64,000 bases of DNA from an uncultured bacterium (GCA_964482725.1 CAYZYT010000001.1:186061-250060); one strand, 5' to 3'. Counted from the stretch's first letter, positions 21,884-45,696 are shown. Translations and numbers: made by a program. Notes: generated from the sequence alone by a model not told the origin.

Positions 21884-22219
21884 ACTTATCAATTTCAATT
21901 TATTGAAATGGGGGCGGCCCAAACTACATTTTTTGGAACAGAAATTAAAAGTTTGGGCGGTTAAAAGCGAAGTCATTTTACAGAAAAATCTTTTCAGCGA
22001 AGAAGGGGATCCCATGGAGTCTTTTTGTCACCTTTTCTCATCAGGAATATAGTTGCCGAAGGCTAACACACCGTCTGAAAAATGGCAAATAGCCCTCCCA
22101 GGAATCTTGGAAGGCAAGTCGCTCATTGTTTGAGATGATCCGTATCGCTATGAATTGCTAGAAGTGAATTCCTGGGACCTCAGGACAAAAATCGTTCTTT
22201 TGTATGGAGCGAAAGGAGA

Positions 22220-30233: not shown

Positions 30234-33200
30234 CTACTTACTCTTCAGGCCTTGATAATCCTGGATCGACCGGACATCCAGTTCATTATCCTTGACGGCC
30301 TGGAGTCCCCGGAGCGCCGCGCGCGCGGCGCTTAGCGTGGTAATACACGGGATACTGAAGGCGACCGCGAGGGACCGGATCTTTCCTTCATCTAGCATCG
30401 GACCTTTCCCGCTCGGCGTATTGATAATGAGGTCCATTTTCTTATTCCGGACCCAATCCCCGATATTCGGGCTCCCTTCCGTGATCTTCAAGATCTCCTG
30501 GACGGGCACCCGGTGATCTTTCAGCACCTGGGTGGTCCCCCGGGTCGACACGACCTTGAACCCGAGGCGATGGAATTCCCTGGCGATTTCGGCAATCTTG
30601 GATTTGTCGGAATCCTTCACGCTGATAAAAACCGTACCCTTCCGCGGGATGCAGCTCATCGCCGCATCCTGGGATTTATAGAAGGCCCTCCCGAAATCCT
30701 TGTCGATCCCCATCACCTCTCCGGTGGATTTCATTTCCGGAGAAAGAATGATATCGACCCCCGGGAACTTCACGAACGGAAAGACGGATTCTTTGACGGC
30801 GACATGTTTCGGAATGATCTCTTCCGTGAATTTCAATTCTTTAAGCGTTTTACCTGCCATAAGCTGGGCGGCAAGTTTCGCCAGCGGGACCCCGATCGTT
30901 TTACTCACGAACGGCACCGTCCGCGATGCGCGGGGGTTCACTTCCAGACAAAAGATCTGGTCCTTCTGGATCGCATATTGAACATTCATAAGCCCCACCA
31001 CGCCGAGTTCCTTCGCGATCTGCTTGGTCTTCTGAACGATCTCTTCCACGATCTCACGCGAAATGGAGAACGGAGGAATGACGGACGCGCTGTCCCCGGA
31101 ATGAATACCGGCTTCCTCGATATGTTCCATGACAGAGCCGACGACCGAGATCTTTCCGTCCGAAATAAGATCGACATCCATTTCGGTCGCATCTTCCAGG
31201 AACTTATCGATCAACACAGGATGGTCGCCACTGGCCTCCACCGCCTGTTTCATGTATTTTTTGAGCGAAGTCTGGTCGTAGGCGATCTCCATAGCGCGTC
31301 CCCCCAATACATAGGACGGCCGGACCACGACCGGGTAACCGATCCGTTTGGCAACCTCGCAGGCCTCCTCGAGACTTTTGGCGATCCCGTTCGCAGGCTG
31401 GGATAAGCGTATTTTCTTTAAAAGTTTTTTGAATTTGTCCCGGTCTTCCGCCCGATCGATCGCCTCCACGGAAGTTCCGAGGATCCGCACACCGTTCGCC
31501 TTTAGCGCCTTGGCAAGATTAAGCGGCGTTTGGCCGCCGAGCTGCAAGATAACCCCCAACGGTTTTTCGTTCTCATAGATATTGAGGACATCTTCCAGCG
31601 TAAGCGGTTCGAAGAAAAGTTTATCCGAGGTGTCATAATCCGTACTCACGGTCTCAGGGTTGGAGTTGACCATGATCGTTTCATAGCCCATTTTCTTGAG
31701 CGCCAGCACCGCGTGGACACAACAATAATCGAATTCGATCCCCTGTCCGATGCGGTTCGGCCCGCCCCCGAGGATCATGATCTTCTTTTTCCGGCTGGGG
31801 TTCGATTCGTCCTCGTCTTCATAAGTCGAATAAAAGTACGGGGTGTACGCCTTGAATTCAGCGGCGCAGGTATCCACCAATTTATAGACCGGTTTAATAC
31901 CCAAAGCCTTACGCTTTTTCCTCACGTCTTTTTCCTGAAGTCCCCAAAAGAAAGCCAGCTGCCGGTCGGAGAATCCATATTGCTTAGCCTTGCGCATGAG
32001 CGCATCCTGCTGCTTCGGTTTTCCCTGCGCTGCAAGCAATTCCCCTTCAAGATCAATGATCTGCTTGAGTTGCGCCAGGAACCACGGATCGACCCCTGTT
32101 TTTTCATAGATCTCCTCGGTGGTGTACCCGGCCAGATAAGCATATTTCAGATAAAAGATCCTGTCTTCCCGTGGGACCTTCGCACACGCAAAGATCTTCT
32201 CACGAAGGGTCTTGTCCAGCGGGACGGTCTTGAGAAATTGAAGATAAGATTCGCGCGTTTTAAGCGTGAGGTCGAAGATCTTATCCTTGCCGTCGCCCCC
32301 GAACCCGAAGCGCTTCGTTTCAAGCGATCGCAAGCCCTTTTGAAACGCCTCCTTGAACGTGCGGCCGATGGACATTACCTCGCCCACGGACTTCATTTGG
32401 GTCGATAAGCGGTCATCCACGCCCTCGAATTTTTCAAAGGCAAAGCGCGGGATCTTGACCACGCAGTAGTCGATCGAAGGTTCGAACGAGGCCGGAGTGT
32501 ATTTGGTAATATCGTTGGGGATCTCATCCAACGTCAACCCGACCGCGAGTTTGGCCGCGAATTTTGCGATCGGAAATCCCGTCGCCTTGGAGGCAAGGGC
32601 TGAAGATCTGGAAACGCGCGGATTCATCTCAATGATGACCATGCGACCCGTTTTGGGGTCAACCGCGAACTGAACGTTCGAACCCCCGGTCTCGATCCCG
32701 ATCTCGGACATGACTTTGCGTGCGGCATCGCGCATCCGCTGGTACTCCCGGTCCGTCAAGGTCTGGGCCGGCGCCACGGTAATGGAATCACCGGTATGAA
32801 CTCCCATCGGATCCAGATTCTCGATCGAACAAATGACCACAAAGTTGTCGTTCGTGTCACGCATCACTTCCAGCTCATACTCTTTCCATCCGACGATCGA
32901 TTCTTCGATCAAGATCTCATGCACACGGCTGTAATCCAGCCCTGTGCGCGCCGTAGTCCGGAGCTCTTCAATATTATGGCAAACTCCGCTCCCGGAACCT
33001 CCCAGCGTAAAACTCGCCCGAACGATCACCGGATAGCCGATCTTTTCGGCCACCTTCTCGGCTTCCTCCAGAGAGTAGGCAAAATCACTTTTAGGGAGAT
33101 CCAGGCCGATCTTTTGCATGGCCCGCTTGAACTCCTCACGATTCTCGGCTTTTTTGATCGCCTCGTATTTCGCGCCGATCATTTCGACATGATGGCGCTG

Positions 33201-33524
33201 GAACACTCCCGCTTCATAGGCCTCGACCGCAAGGTTCAGTCCGGTCTGCCCGCCCATGGTCGGCAGCACCGCGTCGGGTTTTTCTTTGATGATCACTTTT
33301 TCAAGAAATTCCACGGTGAGCGGCTCGATGTAGGTCGCGTCCGCGAGATCCGGGTCGGTCATAATGGTCGCAGGATTTGAATTGATGAGCGCCACCTTGT
33401 AGCCCTCTTCCTTCAAGGCCTTCACGGCTTGAGCGCCCGAATAATCAAACTCGCAGGCCTGACCGATGATGATCGGCCCGGACCCGATGATGAGGATTTT
33501 TTTGATGTCGGTTCTTTTAGGCAT
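30234..33524 (-). CDS. carB: Carbamoyl-phosphate synthase large subunit.
   Basis: Two ATP-grasp halves, an oligomerisation domain and an MGS-like C-terminal domain. Homology along the whole length. Confidence 0.95.
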
Positions 33525-33537
33525 AATTAAATTTTTC

Positions 33538-33602
33538 CCGTCATTCTGAGGGCAAAGCCCGAAGAATCTCGTGTAAGATCCTTCGCTACGCTCAGGATGA
33601 CG
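33538..33602. repeat. Family F1 element, copy 4 (CCGTCATTCTGAGGGCAAAGCCCGAAGAATCTC ... GATCCTTCGCTACGCTCAGGATGACG), between carA and carB.
   Basis: The two halves are inverted copies of the unit CGTCATYCTGAG..AGCGAAGRATC. Confidence 0.55.
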
Positions 33603-33605
33603 CTG

Positions 33606-34724
33606 TTAAACATTTTTTTCGATCAGGTCATAAAAACGGGTAAAGAGATAGTCGCTGTCATGCGGCCCCGGAGCATTCTCGGGGTGATATTGCACGCTGA
33701 AGAGCGGGTGTTTCTTGTGCTGCAGCCCCTCAAGTGTTTTATCATTCAAATTGATATGGGTGATCTCGACCTCGCCCTTGGGAAGCGTATCGACATTCAC
33801 CACAAAGTTATGGTTCTGGGAGGTGATCTCGATCTTCCGCGTCTTGAGGTCCATGACCGGCTGGTTATTGCCATGATGCCCGAACTTGAGCTTCGAGGTC
33901 TTCCCGCCGAGCGCCTGCCCGATCATCTGATGCCCGAGGCAGATCCCGAACATGGGCTTTTTCCCGATAAGTTTGCGGACCGTTTCAACCAGATACTTCA
34001 CCACCGAAGGATCGCCGGGACCGTTCGAGAGAAAGATCCCGTCCGGCTGGTAGGCCAGAATCTCGTCGGCCATCGCGGTCGCGGGAACGACTTGAACATG
34101 AAAGCCGTGCTGGTTGAGTTTCCGGAGGATATTCCATTTCGTTCCGCTATCCACAGCCACGACCTTGAATCTTCTCTTTTTTTGTTCACCCCAGGCGAAT
34201 TCTGCGGGCATGACCTCGTCGAACACAAAAGGTTTCTGGCACATCACCTCTTTGACAAGATCGACGCCTTCGATACCGGGAGATCTTTTGGCTTTCTGGA
34301 TGAGTTTTTTGGGATCCAGTTCCTGCGTGGAGATAACCGCTTTCTTCGCGCCGACGGTCCTGAGGTGCTTCACAAGCTTGCGGGTGTCGATCCCTTGGAT
34401 ACCGAGGATATTGTATTTTTTGAGGTATTGGTCGAGCGTCATCTCGGAGCGATAATTACTCACGATCGGGCTCAATTCCTTGATGATAAACCCTTCGACC
34501 CACGGCCGGGAGGACTCTCCATCCGCCGCATTGATGCCATAATTGCCGATATGCGGGTAGGTCATGCAGACCATCTGACCTTTATAGGAAGGATCGGTCA
34601 GGATCTCTTGATAGCCGCTCAAGCCGGTATTAAAAACCACTTCCCCGAAAGTTTCGCCCTCGGCGCCGAAACCTTCGCCTTCAAACCACACACCATCCTC
34701 GAGCGCTAGTATTGCTTTCTTCAT
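33606..34724 (-). CDS. carA: Carbamoyl-phosphate synthase small (glutaminase) subunit.
   Basis: CarA N-terminal domain plus a class-I glutamine amidotransferase domain (GICLGHQ). Start at MKKAILALEDG. Confidence 0.9.
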   Translation of the reverse strand: MKKAILALEDGVWFEGEGFGAEGETFGEVVFNTGLSGYQEILTDPSYKGQMVCMTYPHIGNYGINAADGESSRPWVEGFIIKELSPIVSNYRSEMTLDQYLKKYNILGIQGIDTRKLVKHLRTVGAKKAVISTQELDPKKLIQKAKRSPGIEGVDLVKEVMCQKPFVFDEVMPAEFAWGEQKKRRFKVVAVDSGTKWNILRKLNQHGFHVQVVPATAMADEILAYQPDGIFLSNGPGDPSVVKYLVETVRKLIGKKPMFGICLGHQMIGQALGGKTSKLKFGHHGNNQPVMDLKTRKIEITSQNHNFVVNVDTLPKGEVEITHINLNDKTLEGLQHKKHPLFSVQYHPENAPGPHDSDYLFTRFYDLIEKNV

Positions 34725-35018
34725 GGTATTTACCTGGGGTAAGTGCATCCGTGGGCTTCCGTACGTACTATCAGAAGGCCTTCATTTCGGCGCATAGAAT
34801 ACTTCAGGTTCTCATAACTGTCCAGCGCGGCGGATCCTCCGAAAAATTATGAAATCCCGTTCGCTGGGTGTTGAAAAGTCCCGGCCCTGCCCCAGCCTTC
34901 CCGAGAGCTAATGGGTTGGCTGGAACAATCACCAGGGGAGGTGATCTTGGGCCGGGATGAAATTTATTAAACTGGAACAGATCTGCTTTGCTTTCCAAGA
35001 CCTGTCCCTCAGGGTCTC

Positions 35019-36350
35019 CTAGAATAGATAGCTTAACTGCCCGCCTAGCGTGTTTTGCTGATTTTTTCCTCCAAACACATTTCCATCGCCGGCATGGGCA
35101 TAATCGATCCGATATTCCGCTCGGGCGATCACGTTCTCCCACGGCTTATACTCAAGCGTCAGGGTATTGGCAACGTCCCTGGCAGCTCCCGCGGTGCCAG
35201 CTCCGGTCCAATTCCGGTAACGCTCGCTATCATCGAAATATTCGAAACGGTAAGCCGCCGCGATCTTCTCGGTGAATTGGTACCGCGCATAGGCCGCATA
35301 ATCGAACCACTGCGCCGTTTGGAAATTGTCGTCCATCGCAATATCCACGCGCGGTTGATTCCCGATATCGAATTCTCCGGCGAAAGCGAGCTTCGGGGTC
35401 GCGTTCCAGCTGAGAACGTTTGTGGCCAAAAAGCGCTTCCCGCCACTTGCAGCGTTGTTCTCAGGCCCAAAATAGGTCGCCGTGGTCCATTTGACGTCCT
35501 TGAGCGGGCTGAAGCTGAACGCGTTTTCAAACGTCTTGTACGAGTTGTTGTCGATATCGTTATCCCAACCGTTATTGATACCTTGATAGAGGGTCAGGTA
35601 ATCGTTAAACAGAGCATACGTCGCCCGAACCCCGGTATGCGTAAAAGGGATCGCATAACCGAACGACACCGAACGGCTGATATTCCAGTTGAACGGACCC
35701 TCGATCACTTCATTTCCCGCCAAAGTGACCATCCGACCGGCTTTGATATCTACGGTGTGCGGCAGAACATCGTTATTGGCCCAAAAACCAAGCGGCGCGA
35801 TGATTTGGACATAGGCCTGCTCGACGGCAAAAGGTGAGTTGCCGCTGCTCCCACCATTCGGTGTCCCGAGATTATCCTTCTGGAAATTATTAAAGTAATA
35901 GCGAGCGTCGCTCCCCATCATCATATCAATGCGGAATCCGGCGCCGCCTTCAGGGTTCGCGACTTTCTCGAACCAGAGCTTGGCCGCATTCATGGAAAAA
36001 GTGTCAGCGGCCTTATCCGTAAGCGAACGCCCCACATTTCCATTTTGCTGCGGCGCCCCAACCTTATTTTGGAATTGGGTTTCCACATAACCGCCCATAT
36101 GGATATCCTCCATGGCCCGGAGAAAACCTTTCTTCTCATCGGCCACCGGCGGGATATAAGTCGTCTGGGCGCCCGGCGCTGGCTTTTCCAGGGTCATCAT
36201 TTTGCTGTCCATGACCTCCAGTTTCCGGCTCAGCGCATCGATCTGCGCTTTGAGCGCCGCAACCTCACTGTCCTCGGCGAAGCCAAGCGCAGACCCCATA
36301 CACATCCCGATCAAGCAAAACCCTGAAAAACCACGGAATAGCCTGTTCAT
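35019..36350 (-). CDS. Outer-membrane beta-barrel porin with an N-terminal coiled-coil segment (OprO/P-like or DcaP-like). It ends in ...LSYLF.
   Basis: Signal peptide. Coiled coil DSEVAALKAQIDALSRKLEVMD. Alternating amphipathic strands. C-terminal Phe. Start MNRLF with AGGAG upstream. It lies 41 bp downstream of glnK in the same orientation. Confidence 0.6.
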   Translation of the reverse strand: MNRLFRGFSGFCLIGMCMGSALGFAEDSEVAALKAQIDALSRKLEVMDSKMMTLEKPAPGAQTTYIPPVADEKKGFLRAMEDIHMGGYVETQFQNKVGAPQQNGNVGRSLTDKAADTFSMNAAKLWFEKVANPEGGAGFRIDMMMGSDARYYFNNFQKDNLGTPNGGSSGNSPFAVEQAYVQIIAPLGFWANNDVLPHTVDIKAGRMVTLAGNEVIEGPFNWNISRSVSFGYAIPFTHTGVRATYALFNDYLTLYQGINNGWDNDIDNNSYKTFENAFSFSPLKDVKWTTATYFGPENNAASGGKRFLATNVLSWNATPKLAFAGEFDIGNQPRVDIAMDDNFQTAQWFDYAAYARYQFTEKIAAAYRFEYFDDSERYRNWTGAGTAGAARDVANTLTLEYKPWENVIARAEYRIDYAHAGDGNVFGGKNQQNTLGGQLSYLF

Positions 36351-36391
36351 AAGCTTCTCCTTTTCTGTGCTCGTATTGAAATCGACCGGGA

Positions 36392-36733
36392 TCACCCGAT
36401 CGCCACTTCGCCTACTTCGCCAGTACGAATGCGAAAACACTCTTTGAGATCGAGAACAAAGATCTTGCCGTCCCCGATATGCCCCGTCCGCGAGCCTTCC
36501 TTGATCGCATCCACCGTCGCTTTCACGAAGGCTTCATTGACCGCGATCTCAAGTTTCACTTTTCGGAGGAGCCTTCCTGCTTCTTTATGGCCCCGGTAGA
36601 CCTCCGAAATGCCCTTCTGACGCCCGCGCCCCAAAACACTTGTGACCGTCACGAGATGGATCTCTTTTTCTTCAAGGATCCGAAGCACTTCATCCACCCG
36701 GTCCGGTTGGATCACTGCAATGATATATTTCAT
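36392..36733 (-). CDS. glnK: Nitrogen regulatory protein P-II.
   Basis: P-II fold motifs (GRGRQKG T-loop region, DGKIFV, IRTGE). Directly downstream of amtB. Confidence 0.85.
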   Translation of the reverse strand: MKYIIAVIQPDRVDEVLRILEEKEIHLVTVTSVLGRGRQKGISEVYRGHKEAGRLLRKVKLEIAVNEAFVKATVDAIKEGSRTGHIGDGKIFVLDLKECFRIRTGEVGEVAIG

Positions 36734-36754
36734 GATACGCCTCCCTTTTTCTCG

Positions 36755-38083
36755 TTAGTCTAAGATGGTGTAGCCGGATTCACGATGTTGCGTGAGATCC
36801 AACCCGATGCGTTCTTCATCCTCAGAAACTCGCAAACCCATCAGGGCATCCACGATCTTCAGAAGGACAAAAGAGACGATGAATGAATAAACAATGGTAA
36901 TGACCACAGCCTTGAGCTGGATCAGAAAAAGTCCCGGGTTCCCATAAAAGAGCCCATTATTCCCAGCCGGGTTGACCTCTTTTGTCGCCCAAAGACCTGT
37001 GGCTAAGGCGCCCCAGATTCCGCCAACGCCATGCACACCAAAAGCATCGAGCGAATCGTCATAGCCGAATTTTGTTTTCACTACGGCGACGAAGAAATAG
37101 CAGATCAACGAAACCCCGACCCCGATCCAGATGGCATCCATGGGGCCCACAAACCCTGCGGCGGGCGTAATGGCGACAAGGCCGGCGACAGCACCCGTGA
37201 TCATGCCAAGCATGGTGGGCTTCTTGCTGATCTTCCATTCCAAGAAAGACCAGGTGAGGCCTGCAGCGGCCGCAGCGACATGCGTCACCACGAGGGCGCT
37301 TGTTGCAAGGCCATTGGCGCCCAGAGCACTTCCCCCATTAAATCCGAACCAACCGAACCATAGAATGCCCGCGCCAAGCACGGCAAACGGTAGGTTGTGC
37401 GGAGGCGACATATGGCTCGGGTAACCTTTCCTTTTCCCCAGCACGATGGCGCAGACCAGGGCCGCGACCCCCGCGTTTATATGCACCACAGTACCGCCGG
37501 CAAAATCCAGAGCGCCTGAATTTCTCAAAAATCCACCCACGCCCCACACCCAGTGGCAAACAGGGTCATAAACGAACGTGGCCCAAAGGAGCGAGAAGAC
37601 GACGAACGCAGAAAATTTCATGCGCTCCGCGAAAGCTCCCAGGATAAGACCCGGCGTGATGATGGCGAACATCGCTTGATAGATCATGAAGGCTTGATGC
37701 GGAACGGTTGCTGAATAATCCACGAAAGGCTCAAGGCCGACGCCGTGCAGGCCCGCCCAGCTCAAGCTCCCAATCATCCCTTTGATGTCCGGCCCAAACG
37801 AAAGGCTGTAACCAAAGATCACCCATTGAAGCGTGATAATGCACATCAACATAAAACATTGCATGAGCACGGAGAGCATGTTCTTCTTGCGGACCAAACC
37901 GCCGTAGAAGAACGCAAGTCCCGGCGTCATCAAAAAAACCAGGGCTGCCGAGAGCAACACCCAAGCCGTATCGCCTGTATTGATGATGGGCACAACCGCA
38001 TCCGCGGCCAGCGCCAGTTTCGAGATCCCCATGAGGACAAGAAATCCTGTCACTCCGAAAAGCCACCCCGTAAATCTTCTCAT
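36755..38083 (-). CDS. amtB: Ammonium transporter.
   Basis: About 11 TM helices and Amt signatures (D..GG.VVH, FGFNGGSA). Confidence 0.9.
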   Translation of the reverse strand: MRRFTGWLFGVTGFLVLMGISKLALAADAVVPIINTGDTAWVLLSAALVFLMTPGLAFFYGGLVRKKNMLSVLMQCFMLMCIITLQWVIFGYSLSFGPDIKGMIGSLSWAGLHGVGLEPFVDYSATVPHQAFMIYQAMFAIITPGLILGAFAERMKFSAFVVFSLLWATFVYDPVCHWVWGVGGFLRNSGALDFAGGTVVHINAGVAALVCAIVLGKRKGYPSHMSPPHNLPFAVLGAGILWFGWFGFNGGSALGANGLATSALVVTHVAAAAAGLTWSFLEWKISKKPTMLGMITGAVAGLVAITPAAGFVGPMDAIWIGVGVSLICYFFVAVVKTKFGYDDSLDAFGVHGVGGIWGALATGLWATKEVNPAGNNGLFYGNPGLFLIQLKAVVITIVYSFIVSFVLLKIVDALMGLRVSEDEERIGLDLTQHRESGYTILD

Positions 38084-38193
38084 TGTGTGATCCTCCTTTT
38101 TTATATTGGAACTCTCGCTCTACGAATTCGTCTGACATTTTTGTATTTTTTGAAGCCATAAAACCCTTCGCATCCATGAACACCTGTAGATGA

Positions 38194-38209
38194 TGCAAAA
38201 GACGTGCCA
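38194..38209 (-). promoter_or_regulatory. Sigma-54 (-24/-12) promoter for amtB-glnK-porin. The minus strand reads TGGCAC-GTCTT-TTGCA.
   Basis: Perfect consensus elements with 5-nt spacing, about 110 nt upstream of the amtB ATG. Confidence 0.7.
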
Positions 38210-38242
38210 ACTTTGGGAGATAGGACAAAAGAGGTGCAGATA

Positions 38243-38262
38243 TTTTTTTTGGGGGGGGGGGG
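38243..38262. repeat. Homopolymer tract T8 G12, about 35 bp upstream of the amtB sigma-54 promoter.
   Basis: TTTTTTTTGGGGGGGGGGGG is seen directly in the sequence. Confidence 0.8.
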
Positions 38263-38541
38263 ATTTTCATGAGAGATCAGAATGATCCCGATGCAACAAA
38301 CGCATGAAGCAGACTCGCCACGCAGCGTGGCGGGTTCGTCCTCACCCAAACTTCGGGTGAGGCGAAAAAGGCGAGCCCCTCAGGGGATGAGGAAGCCCGC
38401 CTGCCTTGCCCTATTCGCGATTAATCAGAAGAAAATAGAGGACCATAGGACTATCCTTGTCTCCAATTTCATTTCTTGAATGGTGACAAGGATTGCCCCA
38501 ATCTCAGCACCGCTTCGACTGATTGGTATTGGGACTAACCC

Positions 38542-38571
38542 GGCTTTTCATCAAAAATCTGATGAAAAGCC
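38542..38571 (-). terminator. 11-bp perfect stem hairpin GGCTTTTCATC-aaaaatct-GATGAAAAGCC immediately 3' of glnN.
   Basis: Lies 24 nt downstream of the glnN stop. No clean U-tract follows. Confidence 0.45.
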
Positions 38572-38594
38572 AGGGATTGCCCTATTTGAAAAAC

Positions 38595-40709
38595 TTACAG
38601 TTTGAAAAGCATTTCGGCATAGGTGGGGACCGGCCAAAGGTTTGCCGGCATCAATCCTTCCACAGCATCAATATCCTTGCGCAGATCACTGGCCGCAACC
38701 ACCACTTTGTCGCGGAAGGCTTCAGCGCGTTTGATCAGATCCTTCGCCGCATGCGCTTTTTCGATCGCGTTCTCGAGCACCGTCAGCTTCTCATCGGCTG
38801 ATTCCAAAAGGTCGCTGACTTTCCCCAGCAATTCCTTCTGAACTTTAGAAGAAACAGCGACCGATTTGAGTTTTGAAACCGTCTTCGCAAGATCCTTCGT
38901 GAACTCGATGACGGCGGGAATGTACTGACGCTTCACCATGTGGACCGCGGCCCGGGCTTCAATGTTGACGTGTTTCACATAAGCCTCGAGATAGATCTCA
39001 TAGCGTGAGTGCAACTCCCCGGCCGAAAGCACTTTATACTTTTCAAAAAGCTTCACGGCTTCCGGCGTTGCCATTGAGGCGAGCGCTTCGACGCCTGTTT
39101 TAACGTTCGGCAAGCCGCGTTTCTTGGCTTCCGCGACCCACTCCTCCGAATAGTTATTCCCGTTAAAAATAATCCGCCCATGCTTTTTCATGGCATCCCG
39201 GATGATCGCGGTCGCTTCCTTGTGGAGGCCGCTTTTTCCGGCCTTTTCAAGACGCGTCGCGATCTCATCCAGCGCTTCCGCCGCGATCACATTGATCACA
39301 ATGTTGGGACCGGAAATCGAGGCTGAAGACCCGACCATGCGGAATTCAAACTTGTTGCCTGTAAACGCGAAGGGCGATGTGCGATTCCGGTCCGTATTAT
39401 CCTTCGGGAGTTGAGGCAAAGAATCAACACCGACCTGGACAAAATGCTGTCCGCGATTTTCGACCTTCTTGCCTTTGGCGATCCCTTCTAGGATCTCCGT
39501 AAATTCATCCCCCATAAAAATAGAGATAATGGCCGGAGGAGCTTCGTTGGCGCCGAGCCGAAGATCGTTCCCGGGATTCCCGCAGCTTGCGCGCAATTTT
39601 TCCGCGTGACGGTCCACCGCCATAATCATCGCGCTCACAAAGATCAGGAACTGTTCATTCTCAGCCGGCGTTCTCCCCGGCTCAAGCAGGTTCTGCCCGT
39701 CATCGGTCGAAAGCGACCAGTTGTTGTGCTTGCCGGAACCGTTCACACCCGCAAACGGTTTCTCATGAAGGAGACACACAAGATCATGGCGAAGAGCCAC
39801 TTTCTGCATGGTTTCCATGACCAGCTGGTTGTGATCCGCAGCAATGTTGGTCGTCGAAAAAATCGGCGCCATCTCGTATTGCGCGGGCGCGACCTCATTG
39901 TGTTTCGTTTTGGAGGAAATGCCCATCTTCCACAATTCGATATCAAGGTCCCTCATAAAATCGGCAATACGGTCCTTGATCGCACCGAAATACTGGTCTT
40001 CTAGCTCCTGCCCCTTCGGAGCCGGCGCGCCAAAAAGAGCTCGCCCGGAGACGATCAGGTCGAGACGTTTTTCATAGCATGTTTTATCGATCAAAAAATA
40101 TTCCTGCTCGGGACCGACTGTCGAGGTCACACGCTTGACGGTTTTATTACCCAGAGCCTTCACAACCCGAACCGCCTGTTTTGAGACCGCTTCCATGGAA
40201 CGAAGAAGTGGGGTTTTCTTATCCAGGGCTTCACTCGTGTAGGAACAGAAGGCCGTCGGGATACAAAGCGTCACGTTACTCGACGCATCGGTCTTAAGAA
40301 ACGCCGGCGAGGTGCAATCCCAGGCGGTATAGCCTCGCGCTTCGAACGTAGACCTCAGCCCGCCGCTCGGAAAGGACGAAGCATCCGGTTCTCCCTGTGT
40401 CAGCTGCTTGCCGGAAAACTCCATGATCACACTGCCGTCTTCGGTCGGCGCAATAAAGGAATCATGCTTTTCCGCGGTCCGTCCGGTCAAAGGCTGGAAC
40501 CAGTGCGTATAATGCGTTGCGCCCTTCTCGATCGCCCAGTCTTTCATCGCGCTGGCAACGACGTTGGCGACCTCCAGAGAAAGAGGCAACCCCTCCTGGA
40601 TCGTCTTTCTCAAAGCCTTGTAGGTATCTCTCGGGAGCCTTTCCTTCATCACCCGGTCGTTAAAAACATTACTTCCGAAAATTTCCGTTACATCGATCTG
40701 CTTGTGCAT
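38595..40709 (-). CDS. glnN: Glutamine synthetase type III.
   Basis: Length and motifs ([11 protein letters not shown] at the N-terminus, GS catalytic domain) match GSIII. Start MHKQIDV with GGAGG upstream. The ORF track over-extends to 40775. Confidence 0.85.
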
Positions 40710-40742
40710 AGCAACCTCCCCTTTTTTGTGTAATGTATGAAA

Positions 40743-40759
40743 AGCAAGTTCTATGCCAA
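40743..40759 (-). promoter_or_regulatory. Sigma-54 promoter for glnN. The minus strand reads TGGCAT-AGAAC-TTGCT.
   Basis: Correct GG/GC spacing. About 35 nt upstream of the glnN ATG. Confidence 0.6.
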
Positions 40760-40809
40760 CTTCCAAATTAATCACTCAGAGGAATTATAGCCCGAAAGGG
40801 AACGTGGAT

Positions 40810-40854
40810 ATACAAAATTGTATGCGCCTTTTTTTCGAGTATACAAAAATGTAT
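40810..40854. promoter_or_regulatory. Two 14-bp palindromes ATACA-N4-TGTAT (40810..40823 and 40841..40854), centred 31 bp apart. Candidate enhancer (UAS) for the glnN sigma-54 promoter.
   Basis: They sit about 50 to 110 bp upstream of the -24/-12 element. Spacing is three helical turns. Confidence 0.45.
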
Positions 40855-40863
40855 CTTATCCAG

Positions 40864-40904
40864 GGTCTGATTCTCATTAGTCTGGAATCAAAGGTATCCA
40901 GGAC
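40864..40904 (+). repeat. Bipartite inverted-repeat element, family F4, copy 3 (GGTCTGATTCTCATTA-N13-GGTATCCAGGAC).
   Basis: Same architecture as the copies at 42665 and 50324. Confidence 0.5.
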
Positions 40905-40959
40905 TAGCCCCAAGACTTATCCGCCTCACTAAGATAAAAGGGGGCTTTTCCCGACCCCC

Positions 40960-40997
40960 TTCGAGGAAAAGAAAATAAAAGTCAGGACCGTCCTGTC
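40960..40997 (-). terminator. Terminator of the NifA-like gene: hairpin CAGGAC/GTCCTG followed by a U-rich run on the minus strand.
   Basis: The minus strand reads GACAGGACGGTCCTGACTTTTATTTTCTTTTCC directly after the stop codon. Confidence 0.5.
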
Positions 40998-41010
40998 GAC
41001 CTTTGCATTT

Positions 41011-42609
41011 TTAACGAAGGCAGGATAGACCGTAGATCTTGACCTTATACCCCAGGATCCGCTCCGTAACCCCAAGGATCTTAGCCGCTTTCCGTTGGCT
41101 CCCGCCTGTTTTTTGGAACGCCGCCTGAATCAACTTCTTTTCGAGTTTCTCAACTGCACCCGAAAGATCCCCGCAAGATTCTTCGCTTTCCTTCTCGCCG
41201 GCAGGAGACTCGCGCTCCTTAAGCTGGATCGTAACCGGATGGCCTTTGGGCCCCGGGATCGGGAAGAGATCGGCTTCAAGCGTATCGGTCTTGCAATGGA
41301 TCACGGCCCTCTCGATCGCGTTCTCGAGCTCACGAATATTGCCGGGCCAGGCATAACCCATGAGATATTTCATGGCTTCATCGGAAACATACTTCACTTT
41401 CTTCCCGTTCTCCAGGGTCGCTTTTTTCAAAAAATGCGCGACAAGAAGCGGAACATCTTCCCGCCTCTCCCGCAAAGAAGGCAAAAGGATCGGCACCACA
41501 TTGAGCCGATAATAGAGGTCTTCCCGGAACTGCTTTTCCTGAATGGCCTTCTCAAGATCGCGATTGGTCGCCGCGATCACCCGCACATCGACGTGGATCG
41601 TCTGGGTCCCCCCCACACGCTCGAACTCCCGCTCTTGGAGCGCGCGCAAGAGCTTGACCTGCATCGACGCCGAAATATCCCCGATCTCATCGAGAAAAAG
41701 CGTTCCGCCGTCCGCCATTTCAAAACGCCCTAATTTCTTTGCCGCCGCACCGGTAAAGGCGCCCTTTTCGTACCCGAAGAGTTCGCTCTCCAGAAGCGTT
41801 TCCGGCAATGCCGCACAGGACACTTTCACGAAAGGGCCTTTGGCGCGATGGCTTCCATAATGGATCGCATGCGCCACCAGCTCTTTTCCTGTTCCTGTTT
41901 CGCCCCGCAAGAGCACGGTCGAACGCGTCCGGCTCACCATGTCGATGGCTTCATAAACTTCTTCCATTCGCTTGCTTTTGCCGATGATGTTGGCGGGATG
42001 GAATTTTTTGGCAAGTTCCCGTTTCAGCTCAACATTCTCGAACTGGAGCTTTGCTTTTTCCTTTTCACGGAGCCGGTAACTGGCAACGGTTTGCGCGAGG
42101 ATGGAACTGATAATGGTCAAAAGCCTCAGATCCTCGTCCAAGGAGACATTCCCCTCGAAAAGGCGGTCCACACTCAGCGCCCCGATGGTTTCCTGATCGA
42201 TCTTGATGGGAACACAAATGAAAGCGATCCGGTTACGACGAAAATCCTTCCGCGCACCGGTTCGATTAAGAAAAAGCGGCTCTTCTCCGATATTCGGAAC
42301 GGCGATCGGCTCTCCCGCCTCTACGACCTTCCCGGTAATCCCTTCCCCGACCTTATAGCGGCCTTTCTTTTTAGCCTGATCGTCCAGGCCATGGGCGATC
42401 TCGATCGTAAGACTTTCCCCGTCAGCGTCGAGAAGCGTCAGCGTTCCCCGGTGCATCCCCATTTTCTCCTGGAGAACATCCAGCGCCTTCCTCATACGTT
42501 CCTCGATCGGGAGCGGAGATGTCATGTGCCGGGTGATCTCATAGAGCACACTCAGCTCCTGGATCTCACGCTGAAGTCCTACGGAAGGTTTCATTTTTTC
42601 GGTGCCCAT
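41011..42609 (-). CDS. Sigma-54-dependent transcriptional activator with an N-terminal GAF domain (NifA-like, no receiver domain) and a C-terminal Fis-type HTH.
   Basis: GAF region, AAA+ sigma-54 interaction domain ([21 protein letters not shown]) and HTH ([16 protein letters not shown]). Confidence 0.8.
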
Positions 42610-42664
42610 AGATTATTTCACGGCCTGACCCGCCCAAATGACAGACTTTAAAGGTTGGCGGGAC

Positions 42665-42708
42665 GGGTCCTGATTACCTTTATTTTAAAATTAATGAGAA
42701 TCAGGGCC
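42665..42708 (-). repeat. Family F4 element, copy 1 (minus strand: GGCCCTGATTCTCATTAATTTTAAAATAAAGGTAATCAGGACCC). It overlaps the lpxI stop codon.
   Basis: The lpxI TGA is the TGA inside CCCTGATTCTC. The element ends about 50 nt upstream of the NifA-like start. Confidence 0.55.
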
Positions 42709-43516
42709 TGTCACTAACGCCATAAAGGACAATACCGGCACGATTCGCTTTTTCCACAAAGATGTCCTTACCGATAAAAAGCGTCTTATGCGCCTCGAAA
42801 GCAAAAGCCTCGGCATGCACTGCCATAAGGACCTCCAGCGTCTTCAAACCTACCGCCGGCACATCAAAACGCATGTCCTGGTTCGGCTTGGCTATTTTCA
42901 CCACGATGATCTTACCCCGCCCGAGCGCCCCGCCTCGGCGTATCGCTTCGTCGGTACCTTCAATAGCTTCGACCGCGAGCACCGCTTTATTTTTGACGAC
43001 CACCGTCTGTCCGATGTCTGCGCCGGAGATCTTCTGTGCCATTTCAAAACCGAAATCGATATTGTCCATGATCGACTTGGAGGGCTTCTTCTTGCCGAGC
43101 AGTCCCGGCCCCGGCATCATGTCTTTGAGAAGACAGGTGGAGTCCTGGAGCACGATGCCTTTTTTAAAGAGATAATCGGCAATCCCGCTTAGGAGAGAGT
43201 CGTCTTTATGGTCCTTCAGCGTCACCAAGACCGCCATCATGTCGAGGTCAAGACGCACGTTCTCTTTAAAAAAGCGAACCTTCTCGACCTTCCCGGCCAT
43301 GATCGCTTCGTGAGCACCTTCATCTTTGAGGAATTTCGAAAGCTTTTTGAGCTCGCCAACTTTTACCCAAGAAAAAGCATCCGAAATCTTTTCCAGAGAG
43401 GGTTCGGCTTCTTGTTCGATTGCGCAAGTTACAACCCGGTATCCCGCCCTTTTAGCCTCTTCGGCCACCAGGATGGGAAAACGGCCGTTCCCTGCGATGA
43501 TCCCCATGGTTTTCAT
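42701..43516 (-). CDS. lpxI: UDP-2,3-diacylglucosamine hydrolase LpxI (DUF1009 family).
   Basis: N-terminus MGIIAGNGRFP and overall LpxI-family similarity. Co-located with lpxA and lpxC. Confidence 0.7.
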   Translation of the reverse strand: MKTMGIIAGNGRFPILVAEEAKRAGYRVVTCAIEQEAEPSLEKISDAFSWVKVGELKKLSKFLKDEGAHEAIMAGKVEKVRFFKENVRLDLDMMAVLVTLKDHKDDSLLSGIADYLFKKGIVLQDSTCLLKDMMPGPGLLGKKKPSKSIMDNIDFGFEMAQKISGADIGQTVVVKNKAVLAVEAIEGTDEAIRRGGALGRGKIIVVKIAKPNQDMRFDVPAVGLKTLEVLMAVHAEAFAFEAHKTLFIGKDIFVEKANRAGIVLYGVSDRP

Positions 43517-43648
43517 GTTTTACCCCGTTCAAGAGAGGGAGCGATGGCGTACATGAGAGGAAACCTACGCTCCAAATTCTCGATTTCTTTTTATTGATGC
43601 CCAGCAGGATGGCTCATCCCGCCAAAGGCAGGATGATAGAGAATAAAA

Positions 43649-44416
43649 CTATCCGCAAATACCCCGCTCGGACTTCTCCAAAAATGAAAGAATCGTCTGA
43701 ATGGAAGGACTGAGGGGGATGTCTTGCTGGATCTGCTTGATAACGTTCTTTAAAATAAGACCCGACTTGAAGATGATCTTGAAGGCTTTTTTGATCGCCG
43801 ATTTTTCTGCTTGGGAAAATCCCGCGCGATCCAAACCCACGGCATTAATGCCGAAGGCATGCGCCGGATGACCGTCGACCATCATAAAAGGAGGGATGTC
43901 TTGCACGACCTTGGAACATCCGCCCGTAATCGACAATTTCCCGATCCGGACGAACTGGTGAACCGCAGAGAGGCCTCCGATGATCGCTTGGTCCTCCACG
44001 ATCACGTGCCCCGCAAGCGTCGCGTTATTGGCAAGCGTTGCACCATTATGGATGATGCAATCGTGAGCGACGTGCGCGTAAGCCATCAGGAGGTTGTCGC
44101 TGCCGATTACGGTCTCGGTACCGTTTAGGGTCCCAGGATTCAAGGTTGCGTATTCACGGATCGTGTTGCGATCGCCGATCTTGAGATAACTCACACCGCC
44201 ATCGGCTTTTTTGTCCTGTGTAAGGCTACCGACCACCGCGCCGGTGAAGATCTCATTATCTTCCCCGAGGGTGGTGTGCCCTTCGATCGTCACACGCGGC
44301 CCGACTTTTGTACGCGCCCCGATCTTTACCGTAGCCGCGATGATGGCCCAAGGACCGATCTCCACCCCTTCACCCAGGATGGCATCCGGATGGACGATCG
44401 CGGAAGGATGGATCAT
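43649..44416 (-). CDS. lpxA: Acyl-ACP--UDP-N-acetylglucosamine O-acyltransferase.
   Basis: Left-handed beta-helix hexapeptide repeats. Start MIHPSAIVHP. The ATGA overlap with the upstream stop is typical of operon coupling. Confidence 0.85.
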   Translation of the reverse strand: MIHPSAIVHPDAILGEGVEIGPWAIIAATVKIGARTKVGPRVTIEGHTTLGEDNEIFTGAVVGSLTQDKKADGGVSYLKIGDRNTIREYATLNPGTLNGTETVIGSDNLLMAYAHVAHDCIIHNGATLANNATLAGHVIVEDQAIIGGLSAVHQFVRIGKLSITGGCSKVVQDIPPFMMVDGHPAHAFGINAVGLDRAGFSQAEKSAIKKAFKIIFKSGLILKNVIKQIQQDIPLSPSIQTILSFLEKSERGICG

Positions 44417-45696
44417 TCCCGGTCGACCACGGCGAACTTCACATCCGCTTCGCATACAAGTTTTTCCCCCACATAGGCCTTTCCGGAACATTGACCGAAC
44501 TTGGCACGTTTCTTTAGGACCTCAACCTCCATCCGAAGCGTATCCCCCGGAAGAACCGGACTGCGCCATTTGACGGCGTCCACGCTCATGAAATAGGCGA
44601 TCTTGCCCCGGTTCTCGGGCTCGCCCAACATGATCACCCCGCCTACCTGCGCCATCGCTTCCACGATCAGCACCCCCGGCATCACCGGATGCCCGGGGAA
44701 ATGTCCCTGAAAAAAATAATCGTTCATGGTGACCTGTTTGAAACCCGTCGCGCGTGTCCCCGGCTCGAAATTCTCGATCCTATCCACAAAAAGGAATGGG
44801 TATCGGTGCGGAATGATCTTCTGGATCTCTTCGACATTCAGTGTTTTGGAGAGTGGTTTCGGTTCAGCGGGAACGTTCATCATTAATTTCCTCACAAGTT
44901 CGACGTTAAGGGCGTGGCCACTCCGGGAAGCGATGACATGCCCCCGAATAAATTTCCCACACAAAAAAAGATCCCCCAGAATATCCATCATTTTGTGACG
45001 ACAAGCTTCGTTTTCAAACCGCAAAGTGTTCTGGAGCGGCTTGTTCTTCTCAAAAATGAGTGTATTGGAAGCATTCGCTCCCTTGCCAAATCCTTGGGAG
45101 AGCAAGAGCTCCGCCTCCTTTTTAAGGCAAAAGGTGCGAGCCGAAGACAACTCCCGCTCAAAGATTTCCGGCAAGATCGGAAGCGATAGGTACTGGTCCA
45201 GAAGGTTCACATCCCGATAACTGAGCATGTAGGAGATCGAGAAAGAATCCGCCGGCAAGATCACGATCGACTGATCCCCCTGATCGATGTACACAGCCTC
45301 CTTGACCTCAAGGAACTTCCGCTCCGCCATCTGTTCCTCGAGGCCCGCGGCGATCAAGGCCTTCGTGAACTCTTGGGCACTCCCATCCATCCCGGGGACT
45401 TCTTCTCCGTCGATCTCCACCAGAGCGTTATCGATCCCGAGCCCGTGAAAAGAAGCCATAAGATGTTCGATCGTCCGAACGCGCCCCGTCCCCACCGAAA
45501 TCGCGGTTTGGCGCATCTCATCGGAACAGACATTCTCGATCGAGGCCTTCACCTTAAGGTCAGGGGCCAGATCCACGCGGCAAAAAAGTATGCCGGCATT
45601 TTCCGAAGCGGGACGCACACACACCGTGACCTTGCGACCGGTATGGAGCCCCGCACCTTCGAAAACGGCCTGGCTTTTGAGAGTCCTTTGCTTCAT
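44413..45696 (-). CDS. lpxC-fabZ: Bifunctional UDP-3-O-acyl-GlcNAc deacetylase / 3-hydroxyacyl-ACP dehydratase (LpxC-FabZ fusion).
   Basis: N-terminal LpxC domain (HTGRKVTV, zinc ligands) fused to a C-terminal hotdog FabZ domain (HFPGHPVMPGVLIVEAMAQ). Confidence 0.85.
   Translation of the reverse strand: MKQRTLKSQAVFEGAGLHTGRKVTVCVRPASENAGILFCRVDLAPDLKVKASIENVCSDEMRQTAISVGTGRVRTIEHLMASFHGLGIDNALVEIDGEEVPGMDGSAQEFTKALIAAGLEEQMAERKFLEVKEAVYIDQGDQSIVILPADSFSISYMLSYRDVNLLDQYLSLPILPEIFERELSSARTFCLKKEAELLLSQGFGKGANASNTLIFEKNKPLQNTLRFENEACRHKMMDILGDLFLCGKFIRGHVIASRSGHALNVELVRKLMMNVPAEPKPLSKTLNVEEIQKIIPHRYPFLFVDRIENFEPGTRATGFKQVTMNDYFFQGHFPGHPVMPGVLIVEAMAQVGGVIMLGEPENRGKIAYFMSVDAVKWRSPVLPGDTLRMEVEVLKKRAKFGQCSGKAYVGEKLVCEADVKFAVVDRE

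Follow-up and report, generated by a model that had tools for sequence, protein, structure and literature searches.

Why should the gene of an outer-membrane porin stand directly behind an ammonium transporter gene and its PII partner? The question is raised by a locus at positions 35,019 to 42,609 of a 64,000-nt stretch of DNA from an uncultured bacterium (GCA_964482725.1 CAYZYT010000001.1:186061-250060), referred to here in its whole length as the window. Five genes, all on the minus strand (35019-42609), encode in this order a NifA-like sigma-54 activator, a type III glutamine synthetase (GSIII, the product of glnN), the ammonium transporter AmtB, a signal protein of the PII family (GlnK by context) and a porin of the BBP2 family. 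The host is, on sequence grounds, an Omnitrophota bacterium, and the closest homologs of the porin (up to 87% identity) come from metagenome-assembled genomes (MAGs) of Candidatus Omnitrophota. The best overall explanation of the locus, to which we give a probability of about 0.6, is a nitrogen-assimilation regulon whose porin takes part in the uptake path of amtB and glnK; both the nitrogen control and the functional link of the porin with nitrogen uptake appear well supported in silico.

The association of such porins with nitrogen genes was analyzed in a survey of 80 BBP2 loci, one genome per species, in which relatives of the AmtB, PII, GSIII and activator proteins of the window were located and set on the porin tree. 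An amtB gene, a PII gene or glnN was found beside the porin gene or within about 3.5 kb of it in 33 of the 80 loci, compared with about one linked locus expected by chance, a rough estimate based on genomes of a few Mb that each carry only a few such genes. The linked loci showed at least four gene arrangements and were labelled as coming from Omnitrophota, Planctomycetia, Nitrospirota, Gammaproteobacteria and Verrucomicrobia. A lack of conserved linkage with amtB across genomes would have spoken against the original prediction, made from the sequence of the window, but the linkage does recur in several clades, gene orders and phyla. Within the clade of the window porin (51-85% identity; 18 assessable loci), amtB and a PII gene stand immediately upstream of the porin gene in 12 loci, in some of them as tandem amtB-glnK pairs, two or three in number, and in some with a small HTH_8 gene in between. 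A PII gene lies upstream of the porin gene in three loci, two of which (L002 and L004) have a permease-PII fusion gene before it and one of which (L015) ends at the contig end; one locus has the order activator-glnN-porin, and two have none of amtB, the PII gene and glnN. On the P0023 contig, independent gene calls with precomputed Pfam labels gave lpxI, the GAF-domain enhancer-binding protein, GSIII, Amt, PII and BBP2 in the same order as in the window.

The linkage extends to distant clades (28-36% identity), in which ten loci, Planctomycetia and Nitrospirota MAGs included, show the order porin-amtB-glnK. This order, with gaps of 14-96 bp, is found in a clade of 32-36% identity made up of Omnitrophota and two Planctomycetia MAGs, and also in two Nitrospirota MAGs, L078 (order Troglogloeales) and L079; in L064 it reads porin-amtB-glnK-glnN. 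In L069 (Spongiibacteraceae) and L071 (labelled Verrucomicrobiaceae), a glnK-amtB-glnK cluster is divergent from the porin gene, and a perfect sigma-54 promoter is located about 95 bp before the latter. Every distant member tested was assigned to PF07642. That the linkage survives rearranged gene orders and porins that have diverged very deeply tells more than the count of 33 in 80.

Four of the surveyed loci carry a gene for an APC-family amino-acid permease fused to a C-terminal PII domain (622-637 aa; L004:4437-6326, L002:4439-6319, L048:5027-6895 and L054:4535-6448), a fusion of which we know of no description. The fusion gene is followed by a separate PII gene and then by the BBP2 porin gene in L002, L004 and L054; the porin gene of L048 comes directly after the fusion gene, and the separate PII gene lies beyond it.

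The transcriptional organization of the locus was deduced from its promoters, junctions and hairpins (Table 1). When the whole window was searched on both strands for TGGCAC-N5-TTGCW with up to 1 mismatch, the only two matches were the sites before amtB and before glnN, a count that is not above chance (1.43 expected); the two promoters are credible because of their position, strand and conservation in orthologous loci. Each has its GG and GC elements 10 bp apart and lies on the right strand upstream of its gene. The amtB promoter is kept in L003, L004, L005 (twice), L006, L007, L008, L012, L013, L014 and L016, and the glnN promoter keeps its distance from glnN in L003, L006, L007, L008, L013, L016 and L019. 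The glnK-porin spacer of the window contains no sigma-54, sigma-70-like or terminator-like site and no stable fold (z -0.02). In eight orthologous loci the porin gene comes directly after glnK, with a gap of 26-78 nt and a ribosome-binding site (RBS) in every one, and no sigma-54 promoter was found in the gaps of those eight loci. At the other end of the operon, two strong hairpins lie 3' of glnN, and glnN should therefore be a unit separate from amtB-glnK-porin; the hairpin nearer to amtB is kept between glnN and amtB in L003, L005, L006, L007, L013 and L016. Short RBS-bearing junctions, a gap with neither promoter nor terminator and a separate glnN unit provide good support for a predicted co-transcription of amtB, glnK and the porin gene. 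A search for an intrinsic terminator 3' of the porin gene found only a weak hairpin (z 0.09). On the promoters and the junction the original prediction agrees with what was found: it had described a near-perfect sigma-54 promoter before amtB and a second one before glnN, both of which turn out to be conserved in orthologs, and a 41-bp gap between glnK and the porin gene with an RBS of its own.

Some further features of these intergenic regions were recorded. The 510-bp spacer between glnN and amtB (38084-38594) is rich in hairpins, and the word TAGGGCAA(GGCAG) precedes those near 38580 and 38410; word and hairpin recur in L003, L006, L013 and L016 and may be elements like the repeated extragenic palindromes or stacked terminators. 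An Rfam scan of positions 33000-45000 for a riboswitch or small RNA in this spacer gave only a chance match to a small nucleolar RNA (E 0.25). A homopolymer tract of C12 followed by A8 (38243-38262), some 35-55 bp before the amtB -24 element, is not kept in the orthologs, which are A/T-rich there, and could be prone to assembly error or slippage. In L006, a hairpin GGGGACAGGCA...TGCCTGTCCCC is found in the glnK-porin gap (6923-7000) and again about 200 bp upstream of the amtB promoter, and this repeated extragenic palindrome might attenuate read-through into the porin gene in that genome. Between the palindromes described below and the glnN sigma-54 promoter, most orthologs conserve a GGCTATAAT / GTATAAT box (40775-40800, minus strand), which may serve the basal transcription of glnN as a sigma-70 -10 element or be bound by a bending protein.

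The two transcription units share a palindromic motif. Upstream of glnN, two perfect palindromes are spaced 31 bp centre to centre; measured from where the -24 element of the glnN promoter starts, they begin at upstream distances of 64 and 95 bp. The window has no other perfect copy of the motif, and none of 100 shuffles reached three matches at up to 1 mismatch. The pair is found at the same positions in L003, L006, L007 and L016 and farther upstream in L019, and the region upstream of glnN contains one perfect and one one-mismatch palindrome in L013 and two sites in L008. The palindrome was absent from the 400 bp upstream of the amtB promoter, and turned up instead, when words of conserved position were sought, in the leader, downstream of that promoter, where an element of the same motif family as the glnN sites is the most position-conserved 12-mer around the amtB promoters. 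This leader element is kept in L003, L004, L005 (both amtB copies), L006, L008, L012, L013 and L014, and the aligned leaders of L004, L005, L005b, L012 and others read CTACAAAAATGTAG / TACGAATTTGTA. When all loci were considered, YTACA-N4-TGTAR was present within -200 to +100 of 25 of the 34 sigma-54-like promoters, compared with a background of 0.1 per kb, and it was located at -51 to -98 of glnN-type promoters (-195 in L019) and at +50 to +86 in 10 of the 12 amtB-type ones. The motif was also found upstream of the sigma-54 promoters of the operon with the permease-PII fusion (L002 and L004) and of lone BBP2 paralogs (L041, L043 and L047). Because they share YTACA-N4-TGTAR near their sigma-54 promoters, glnN, the amtB-glnK-porin operon, the fusion operon and the lone porin genes look like one regulon. 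The simplest candidate for the protein that binds the palindromes would be the NifA-like activator encoded next to them; the activator gene ends just ahead of the palindromes of glnN.

A stand-alone HTH_8 (Fis-type) gene, of about 85-94 aa, is located between the PII gene and the porin gene in L004 (6685-6969) and also in L002, L005, L007 and L011. It is absent from the window, and its product could compete with the activator at the palindromes or assist it there.

The porin itself matched Pfam PF07642 (BBP2; TCDB 1.B.66) with an E value of 3.6e-65 and 220.9 bits (cutoff 26.2), and its residues 83-443 span profile positions 2-339 of 339, which makes it a full-length member of the family; NCBIfam has no model for it. 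A hydrophobic N-terminal leader, 16 predicted strands and the terminus ...SYLF mark the protein as an outer-membrane barrel, and the residues V30, L33, I37, L40, L44, M47, M51 and L54 follow the 3-4-3-4 hydrophobic spacing of a coiled coil. An AlphaFold2 model, based on a 22-sequence alignment, placed 16 strands behind an N-terminal helix at 27-52, and its fold was closest to that of OprP, with DcaP as the second-best match. The predicted fold is therefore that of a 16-strand trimeric porin, and the combination of an N-terminal coiled coil with a 16-strand barrel is also DcaP-like. These results uphold the original prediction of a 443-aa beta-barrel with an N-terminal coiled coil and a C-terminal Phe, and they include the comparison with OprO/P and DcaP that it had proposed. 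Porin_O_P (PF07396) gave no Pfam match with the window porin at E values up to 0.01 and only sub-threshold ones with its relatives. A search of the PDB sequences with the family profile found no solved BBP2 member and only a partial match to NanC (E 5e-6) and insignificant coiled-coil matches. The structure and function of BBP2 (1.B.66) are listed as unknown in TCDB (PMC4827864).

The mechanism that we propose would involve two sigma-54 transcription units, glnN alone and the amtB-glnK-porin operon. Under a shortage of fixed nitrogen, both promoters would be switched on by an enhancer-binding protein, for which the NifA-like protein encoded next to glnN is the most likely candidate; its GAF domain would sense 2-oxoglutarate or the status of PII, and it would bind the YTACA-N4-TGTAR palindromes of the amtB leader and of the region before the glnN promoter. 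The 16-strand BBP2 barrel, of the trimeric-porin type, would then let more ammonium, and perhaps other small solutes containing nitrogen, through the outer membrane, AmtB would move ammonium across the inner membrane under the gating of the PII protein, and GSIII would fix it into glutamine. In function, the porin may by analogy do for nitrogen what PhoE and OprP do in phosphate starvation. The sequences show the identities of the genes, the conserved promoters and motif, the tight junctions, the recurrent linkage and the predicted fold of the porin, and from these we infer the co-transcription, the induction by nitrogen limitation, the nature of the palindrome-binding protein and the substrate of the porin. 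The conserved linkage, the promoters, the motif and the junction all favor a link of the channel with nitrogen uptake, and the shared palindrome also favors the view of the five genes as a single regulated module; the claim of the original prediction, a channel dedicated to ammonium uptake, would be a further inference.

Several observations weigh against this reading or limit it. None of the 27 loci of an Omnitrophota BBP2 clade at about 40% identity is linked to the nitrogen genes. The clade with the order porin-amtB-glnK has no sigma-54 promoter before the porin gene, and those operons must therefore be regulated differently. The palindrome has opposite positions at the two promoters, before that of glnN and after that of amtB, and at amtB it could equally mean repression rather than activation; sigma-54 activator enhancer sites work from downstream positions too, as is known from the NtrC/glnA literature. 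The porin gene may also have an internal promoter inside glnK. The porin model is of medium confidence only (predicted local distance difference test score, pLDDT, 66; predicted template-modelling score, pTM, 0.64), and the nearest solved fold, that of OprP, is anion-selective, a property that phosphate-selective porins owe to an arginine ladder and a lysine cluster along the pore. Moreover, the net charge of the barrel, taken as a proxy for cation selectivity, was negative in linked and unlinked clades alike and thus uninformative, and among the residues that might mark amtB-linked porins only E177 and Y232 split the linked Omnitrophota clades from the unlinked ones. A243 passed the same Omnitrophota filter but is common to an unlinked Burkholderiales group, and none of the three residues occurs in the linked porins of Nitrospirota or Gammaproteobacteria, a signal too weak to use. 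Finally, four loci pair the porin with the permease-PII fusion and not with AmtB.

This last point leads to the main rival explanation, a porin that is nitrogen-regulated and serves as a non-specific or otherwise specific scavenging channel for amino acids, polyamines, urea, nitrite or other small nitrogen compounds, with ammonium as one of several solutes or a minor one. The neighbours of the APC-PII type (L002, L004, L048 and L054) point to such a broader role in nitrogen uptake, as would the loci in which the porin adjoins glnN without amtB (L019 and L050), the lone sigma-54-driven BBP2 paralogs with the same upstream motif, the relationship of the fold to an anion channel and the lack of a cation-selectivity signature in the charge and residue comparisons. 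Nevertheless, AmtB-PII is by far the commonest neighbour, in three gene orders and several phyla, and the substrate of the APC-PII fusion could itself be ammonium-related, so we regard a broader or different nitrogen substrate as rather unlikely. A still less likely explanation is an ordinary general porin whose position behind glnK is an accident of genome history and which takes no specific part in nitrogen uptake. BBP2 is indeed the common porin type in Omnitrophota with many paralogs in housekeeping contexts, and the window has a single BBP2 gene. However, the linkage, found so much more often than the rough chance estimate, outlasts the change from amtB-glnK-porin to porin-amtB-glnK and to the divergent order, and it persists in clades of 28-36% identity and in other phyla, which makes an accidental location unlikely, as do the sigma-54 promoters and the shared motif. 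It would be more improbable still that the porin is mainly structural, its coiled-coil stalk tethering the outer membrane or docking the porin trimer on the AmtB trimer as a trans-envelope conduit. The clear heptad repeat, the predicted helix and the Pro-rich linker would suit such a role, as would the N-terminal coiled coil that DcaP also has and the weak, non-significant profile matches of the coil segment, mostly to trimeric coiled-coil peptides. Yet the coiled coil is equally present in paralogs that are never linked to amtB and absent in amtB-linked porins of Nitrospirota (L078 and L079) and of L069 and L071. A coiled coil acting as an AmtB-docking device was rejected, since its presence does not track amtB linkage.

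As an example from the unlinked Omnitrophota clade, the paralog P0101 (L081:8001-9290; 42% identity) is located directly after rpoD and before a gene for a small TPR protein and pyr/carAB genes, and it looks like a constitutive general porin.

A nitrogen-regulated porin in the amtB-glnK uptake path would have parallels among known systems. Textbook accounts of nitrogen uptake take the outer membrane as freely permeable to ammonium, and porins induced by starvation are known for phosphate, with OprP and OprO of Pseudomonas and PhoE of E. coli belonging to the Pho regulon. The window porin shares only 18% identity with OprP and has no Porin_O_P match; it differs from OprP, OprO and PhoE in being placed under a sigma-54 and enhancer-binding-protein nitrogen regulon instead of PhoB, in having its gene inside an amtB-glnK operon, in its N-terminal coiled coil and in a substrate presumed to be a cation and not phosphate. 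DcaP of Acinetobacter baumannii (PDB 6eus), to which the identity is 10%, is an anion-preferring (dicarboxylate) channel that is not known to be linked to nitrogen genes. In common with the glnK-amtB operon of the E. coli type, which is controlled by NtrC and sigma-54, the window has an AmtB paired with PII and a sigma-54 promoter, whereas its gene order is amtB-glnK with the porin gene as the third, its PII protein is without Tyr51, its binding motif lies in the leader and not upstream, and its candidate activator is a one-component GAF protein in contrast to the NtrB/NtrC two-component system.

Three reports come closer to the proposed function. In Kuenenia stuttgartiensis, the BBP2-domain protein KSMBR1_3177 was reported to be highly upregulated under ammonium limitation, and the authors suggested more ammonium influx (PMC7438415); it belongs to the same Pfam family as the window porin and was reported as a lone hypothetical gene, with no amtB linkage, promoter or regulator described. 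PorA (EQU24_19165) of Methylotuvimicrobium buryatense 5GB1C is a 16-strand porin for which genetics showed faster ammonium uptake and an aid to growth at 0.2 mM NH4+, and the authors of this 2025 preprint stated that no ammonium-specific porin had previously been characterised (bioRxiv 10.1101/2025.01.28.635327); its family is not stated there and an amtB/glnK context is not mentioned. The NtrC regulon of Methylomonas includes a porin (PMC12799797). No paper describing an amtB-linked porin was found, only passing remarks, in a search that left subscription journals outside, so that an earlier mention is possible.

It is thus plausible that the theme of a nutrient-starvation porin co-regulated with an inner-membrane transporter recurs here for nitrogen, and the BBP2 family (1.B.66) would gain a concrete, testable function from its repeated placement with amtB-glnK, the shared promoter type and the regulator site. 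Such a function would suggest that the outer membrane limits uptake at nanomolar to micromolar ammonium, as it does for phosphate in the case of PhoE and OprP. We put forward tentatively, as a conjecture that may well prove too broad, that the BBP2 porins or some of their subclades are the first outer-membrane channel family dedicated to ammonium or nitrogen acquisition, deployed with AmtB and PII across Omnitrophota, Planctomycetota (including anammox bacteria), Nitrospirota and some Proteobacteria and helping to set the apparent ammonium affinity, and that the Omnitrophota regulon is controlled by a one-component NifA-like activator acting on YTACA-N4-TGTAR, also from downstream of the amtB promoter. 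If BBP2 were so dedicated, porins would help to set the ammonium affinity of environmentally important diderm bacteria, and the linkage in relatives from Nitrospirota and Planctomycetia bears on the substrate affinity of nitrogen-cycle bacteria. The analysis also provides a defined regulon, with promoter, motif and candidate activator, for Omnitrophota, a phylum of which nearly all knowledge comes from metagenomes.

The remaining products of the locus were assigned from their domains, in agreement with the original prediction of a NifA-like GAF-domain sigma-54 activator without a receiver domain followed by glnN (GSIII) and amtB-glnK on the minus strand. The activator has the Pfam domains GAF (35-174), Sigma54_activat (208-374), AAA_lid_14 and HTH_8 (486-524) and lacks a receiver domain; its score against TIGR01817 (nifA) was 547.4 bits, above the cutoff of 528.85, so that both score and architecture are those of a NifA equivalog. 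Nevertheless, the canonical NifA site TGT-N10-ACA is not present at the target promoters, which have palindromes with an ACA-N4-TGT core instead, and because of this difference the protein is named NifA-like and not filed as NifA. The activator gene is also located upstream of glnN in L003, L006, L007, L013, L016, L019 and the P0023 contig. GSIII matched GSIII_N (7.8e-80), Gln-synt_C-ter (7.6e-45) and Gln-synt_C (1.9e-21), and its start is ATG 40709, preceded by a GGGGAGG RBS; the GTG 40775 given by a mechanical list of open reading frames (ORFs) is wrong. AmtB matched Ammonium_transp (E 4.4e-134) and TIGR00836 (amt; 486.9 bits, cutoff 343.3), and its gene adjoins the PII gene as in AmtB-GlnK pairs. 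The PII protein matched Pfam P-II (E 7.5e-24, 84.5 bits) and scored under both NCBIfam PII equivalog cutoffs. Its T-loop (...EVYRGHKEAG...) has Glu at position 51, the place of Tyr51, the uridylylation site of enterobacterial GlnK, so that a covalent modification of this protein, if there is one, must follow another scheme than that of GlnD in enterobacteria.

Table 1. Features of the locus, with position in the window, strand, and properties or basis of assignment
GAF / sigma-54 AAA+ / HTH_8 enhancer-binding protein, NifA-like	41011-42609	minus	532 aa; Pfam and NCBIfam
Two perfect palindromes, ATACA-N4-TGTAT	40810-40823 and 40841-40854	n/a	presumed activator binding sites
Sigma-54 -24/-12 promoter of glnN, TGGCATAGAACTTGCT	40743-40758	minus	consensus search
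glnN, type III glutamine synthetase (GSIII)	38595-40709	minus	704 aa; Pfam
Terminator-like 16-bp perfect hairpin directly after the glnN stop	38539-38574	minus	-29.5 kcal/mol, z -5.4; none of 200 shuffles equally stable
G+C-rich hairpin followed by a T-run, form of an intrinsic terminator	38364-38402	minus	-29.1 kcal/mol, z -2.1; TAGGGCAAGGCAG before it
Sigma-54 -24/-12 promoter of amtB-glnK-porin, TGGCACGTCTTTTGCA	38194-38209	minus	exact consensus match; leader of about 100 nt
amtB leader element TACAAAAATGTC (38134-38145) with adjacent degenerate palindrome GACGAATTCGTA (38121-38132)	38121-38145	minus	word conservation
amtB, ammonium transporter	36755-38083	minus	442 aa; Pfam and NCBIfam
PII-family signal protein, GlnK by context	36392-36733	minus	113 aa; 21 nt after amtB
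glnK-porin spacer	36351-36391	minus	41 nt; RBS AAGGAGAA 6 nt before ATG
BBP2-family outer-membrane porin	35019-36350	minus	443 aa; signal peptide, coiled coil about 30-54, Pro-rich linker, 16-strand barrel 84-442, C-terminal Phe

BBP2, amtB and PII genes each occur once in the window; rpoN was not found among its genes, nor were nif genes among its annotated ORFs. An ORF of 1626 aa on the minus strand (17135-22015) had no Pfam match at E values up to 1e-5. The module is flanked by bamA-skp-lpxC/fabZ-lpxA-lpxI and by carA-carB, and the former cluster indicates that the cell builds a lipopolysaccharide outer membrane. Within it, LpxC and FabZ (a FabA-like dehydratase) are fused in a protein of 427 aa (44413-45696, minus strand).

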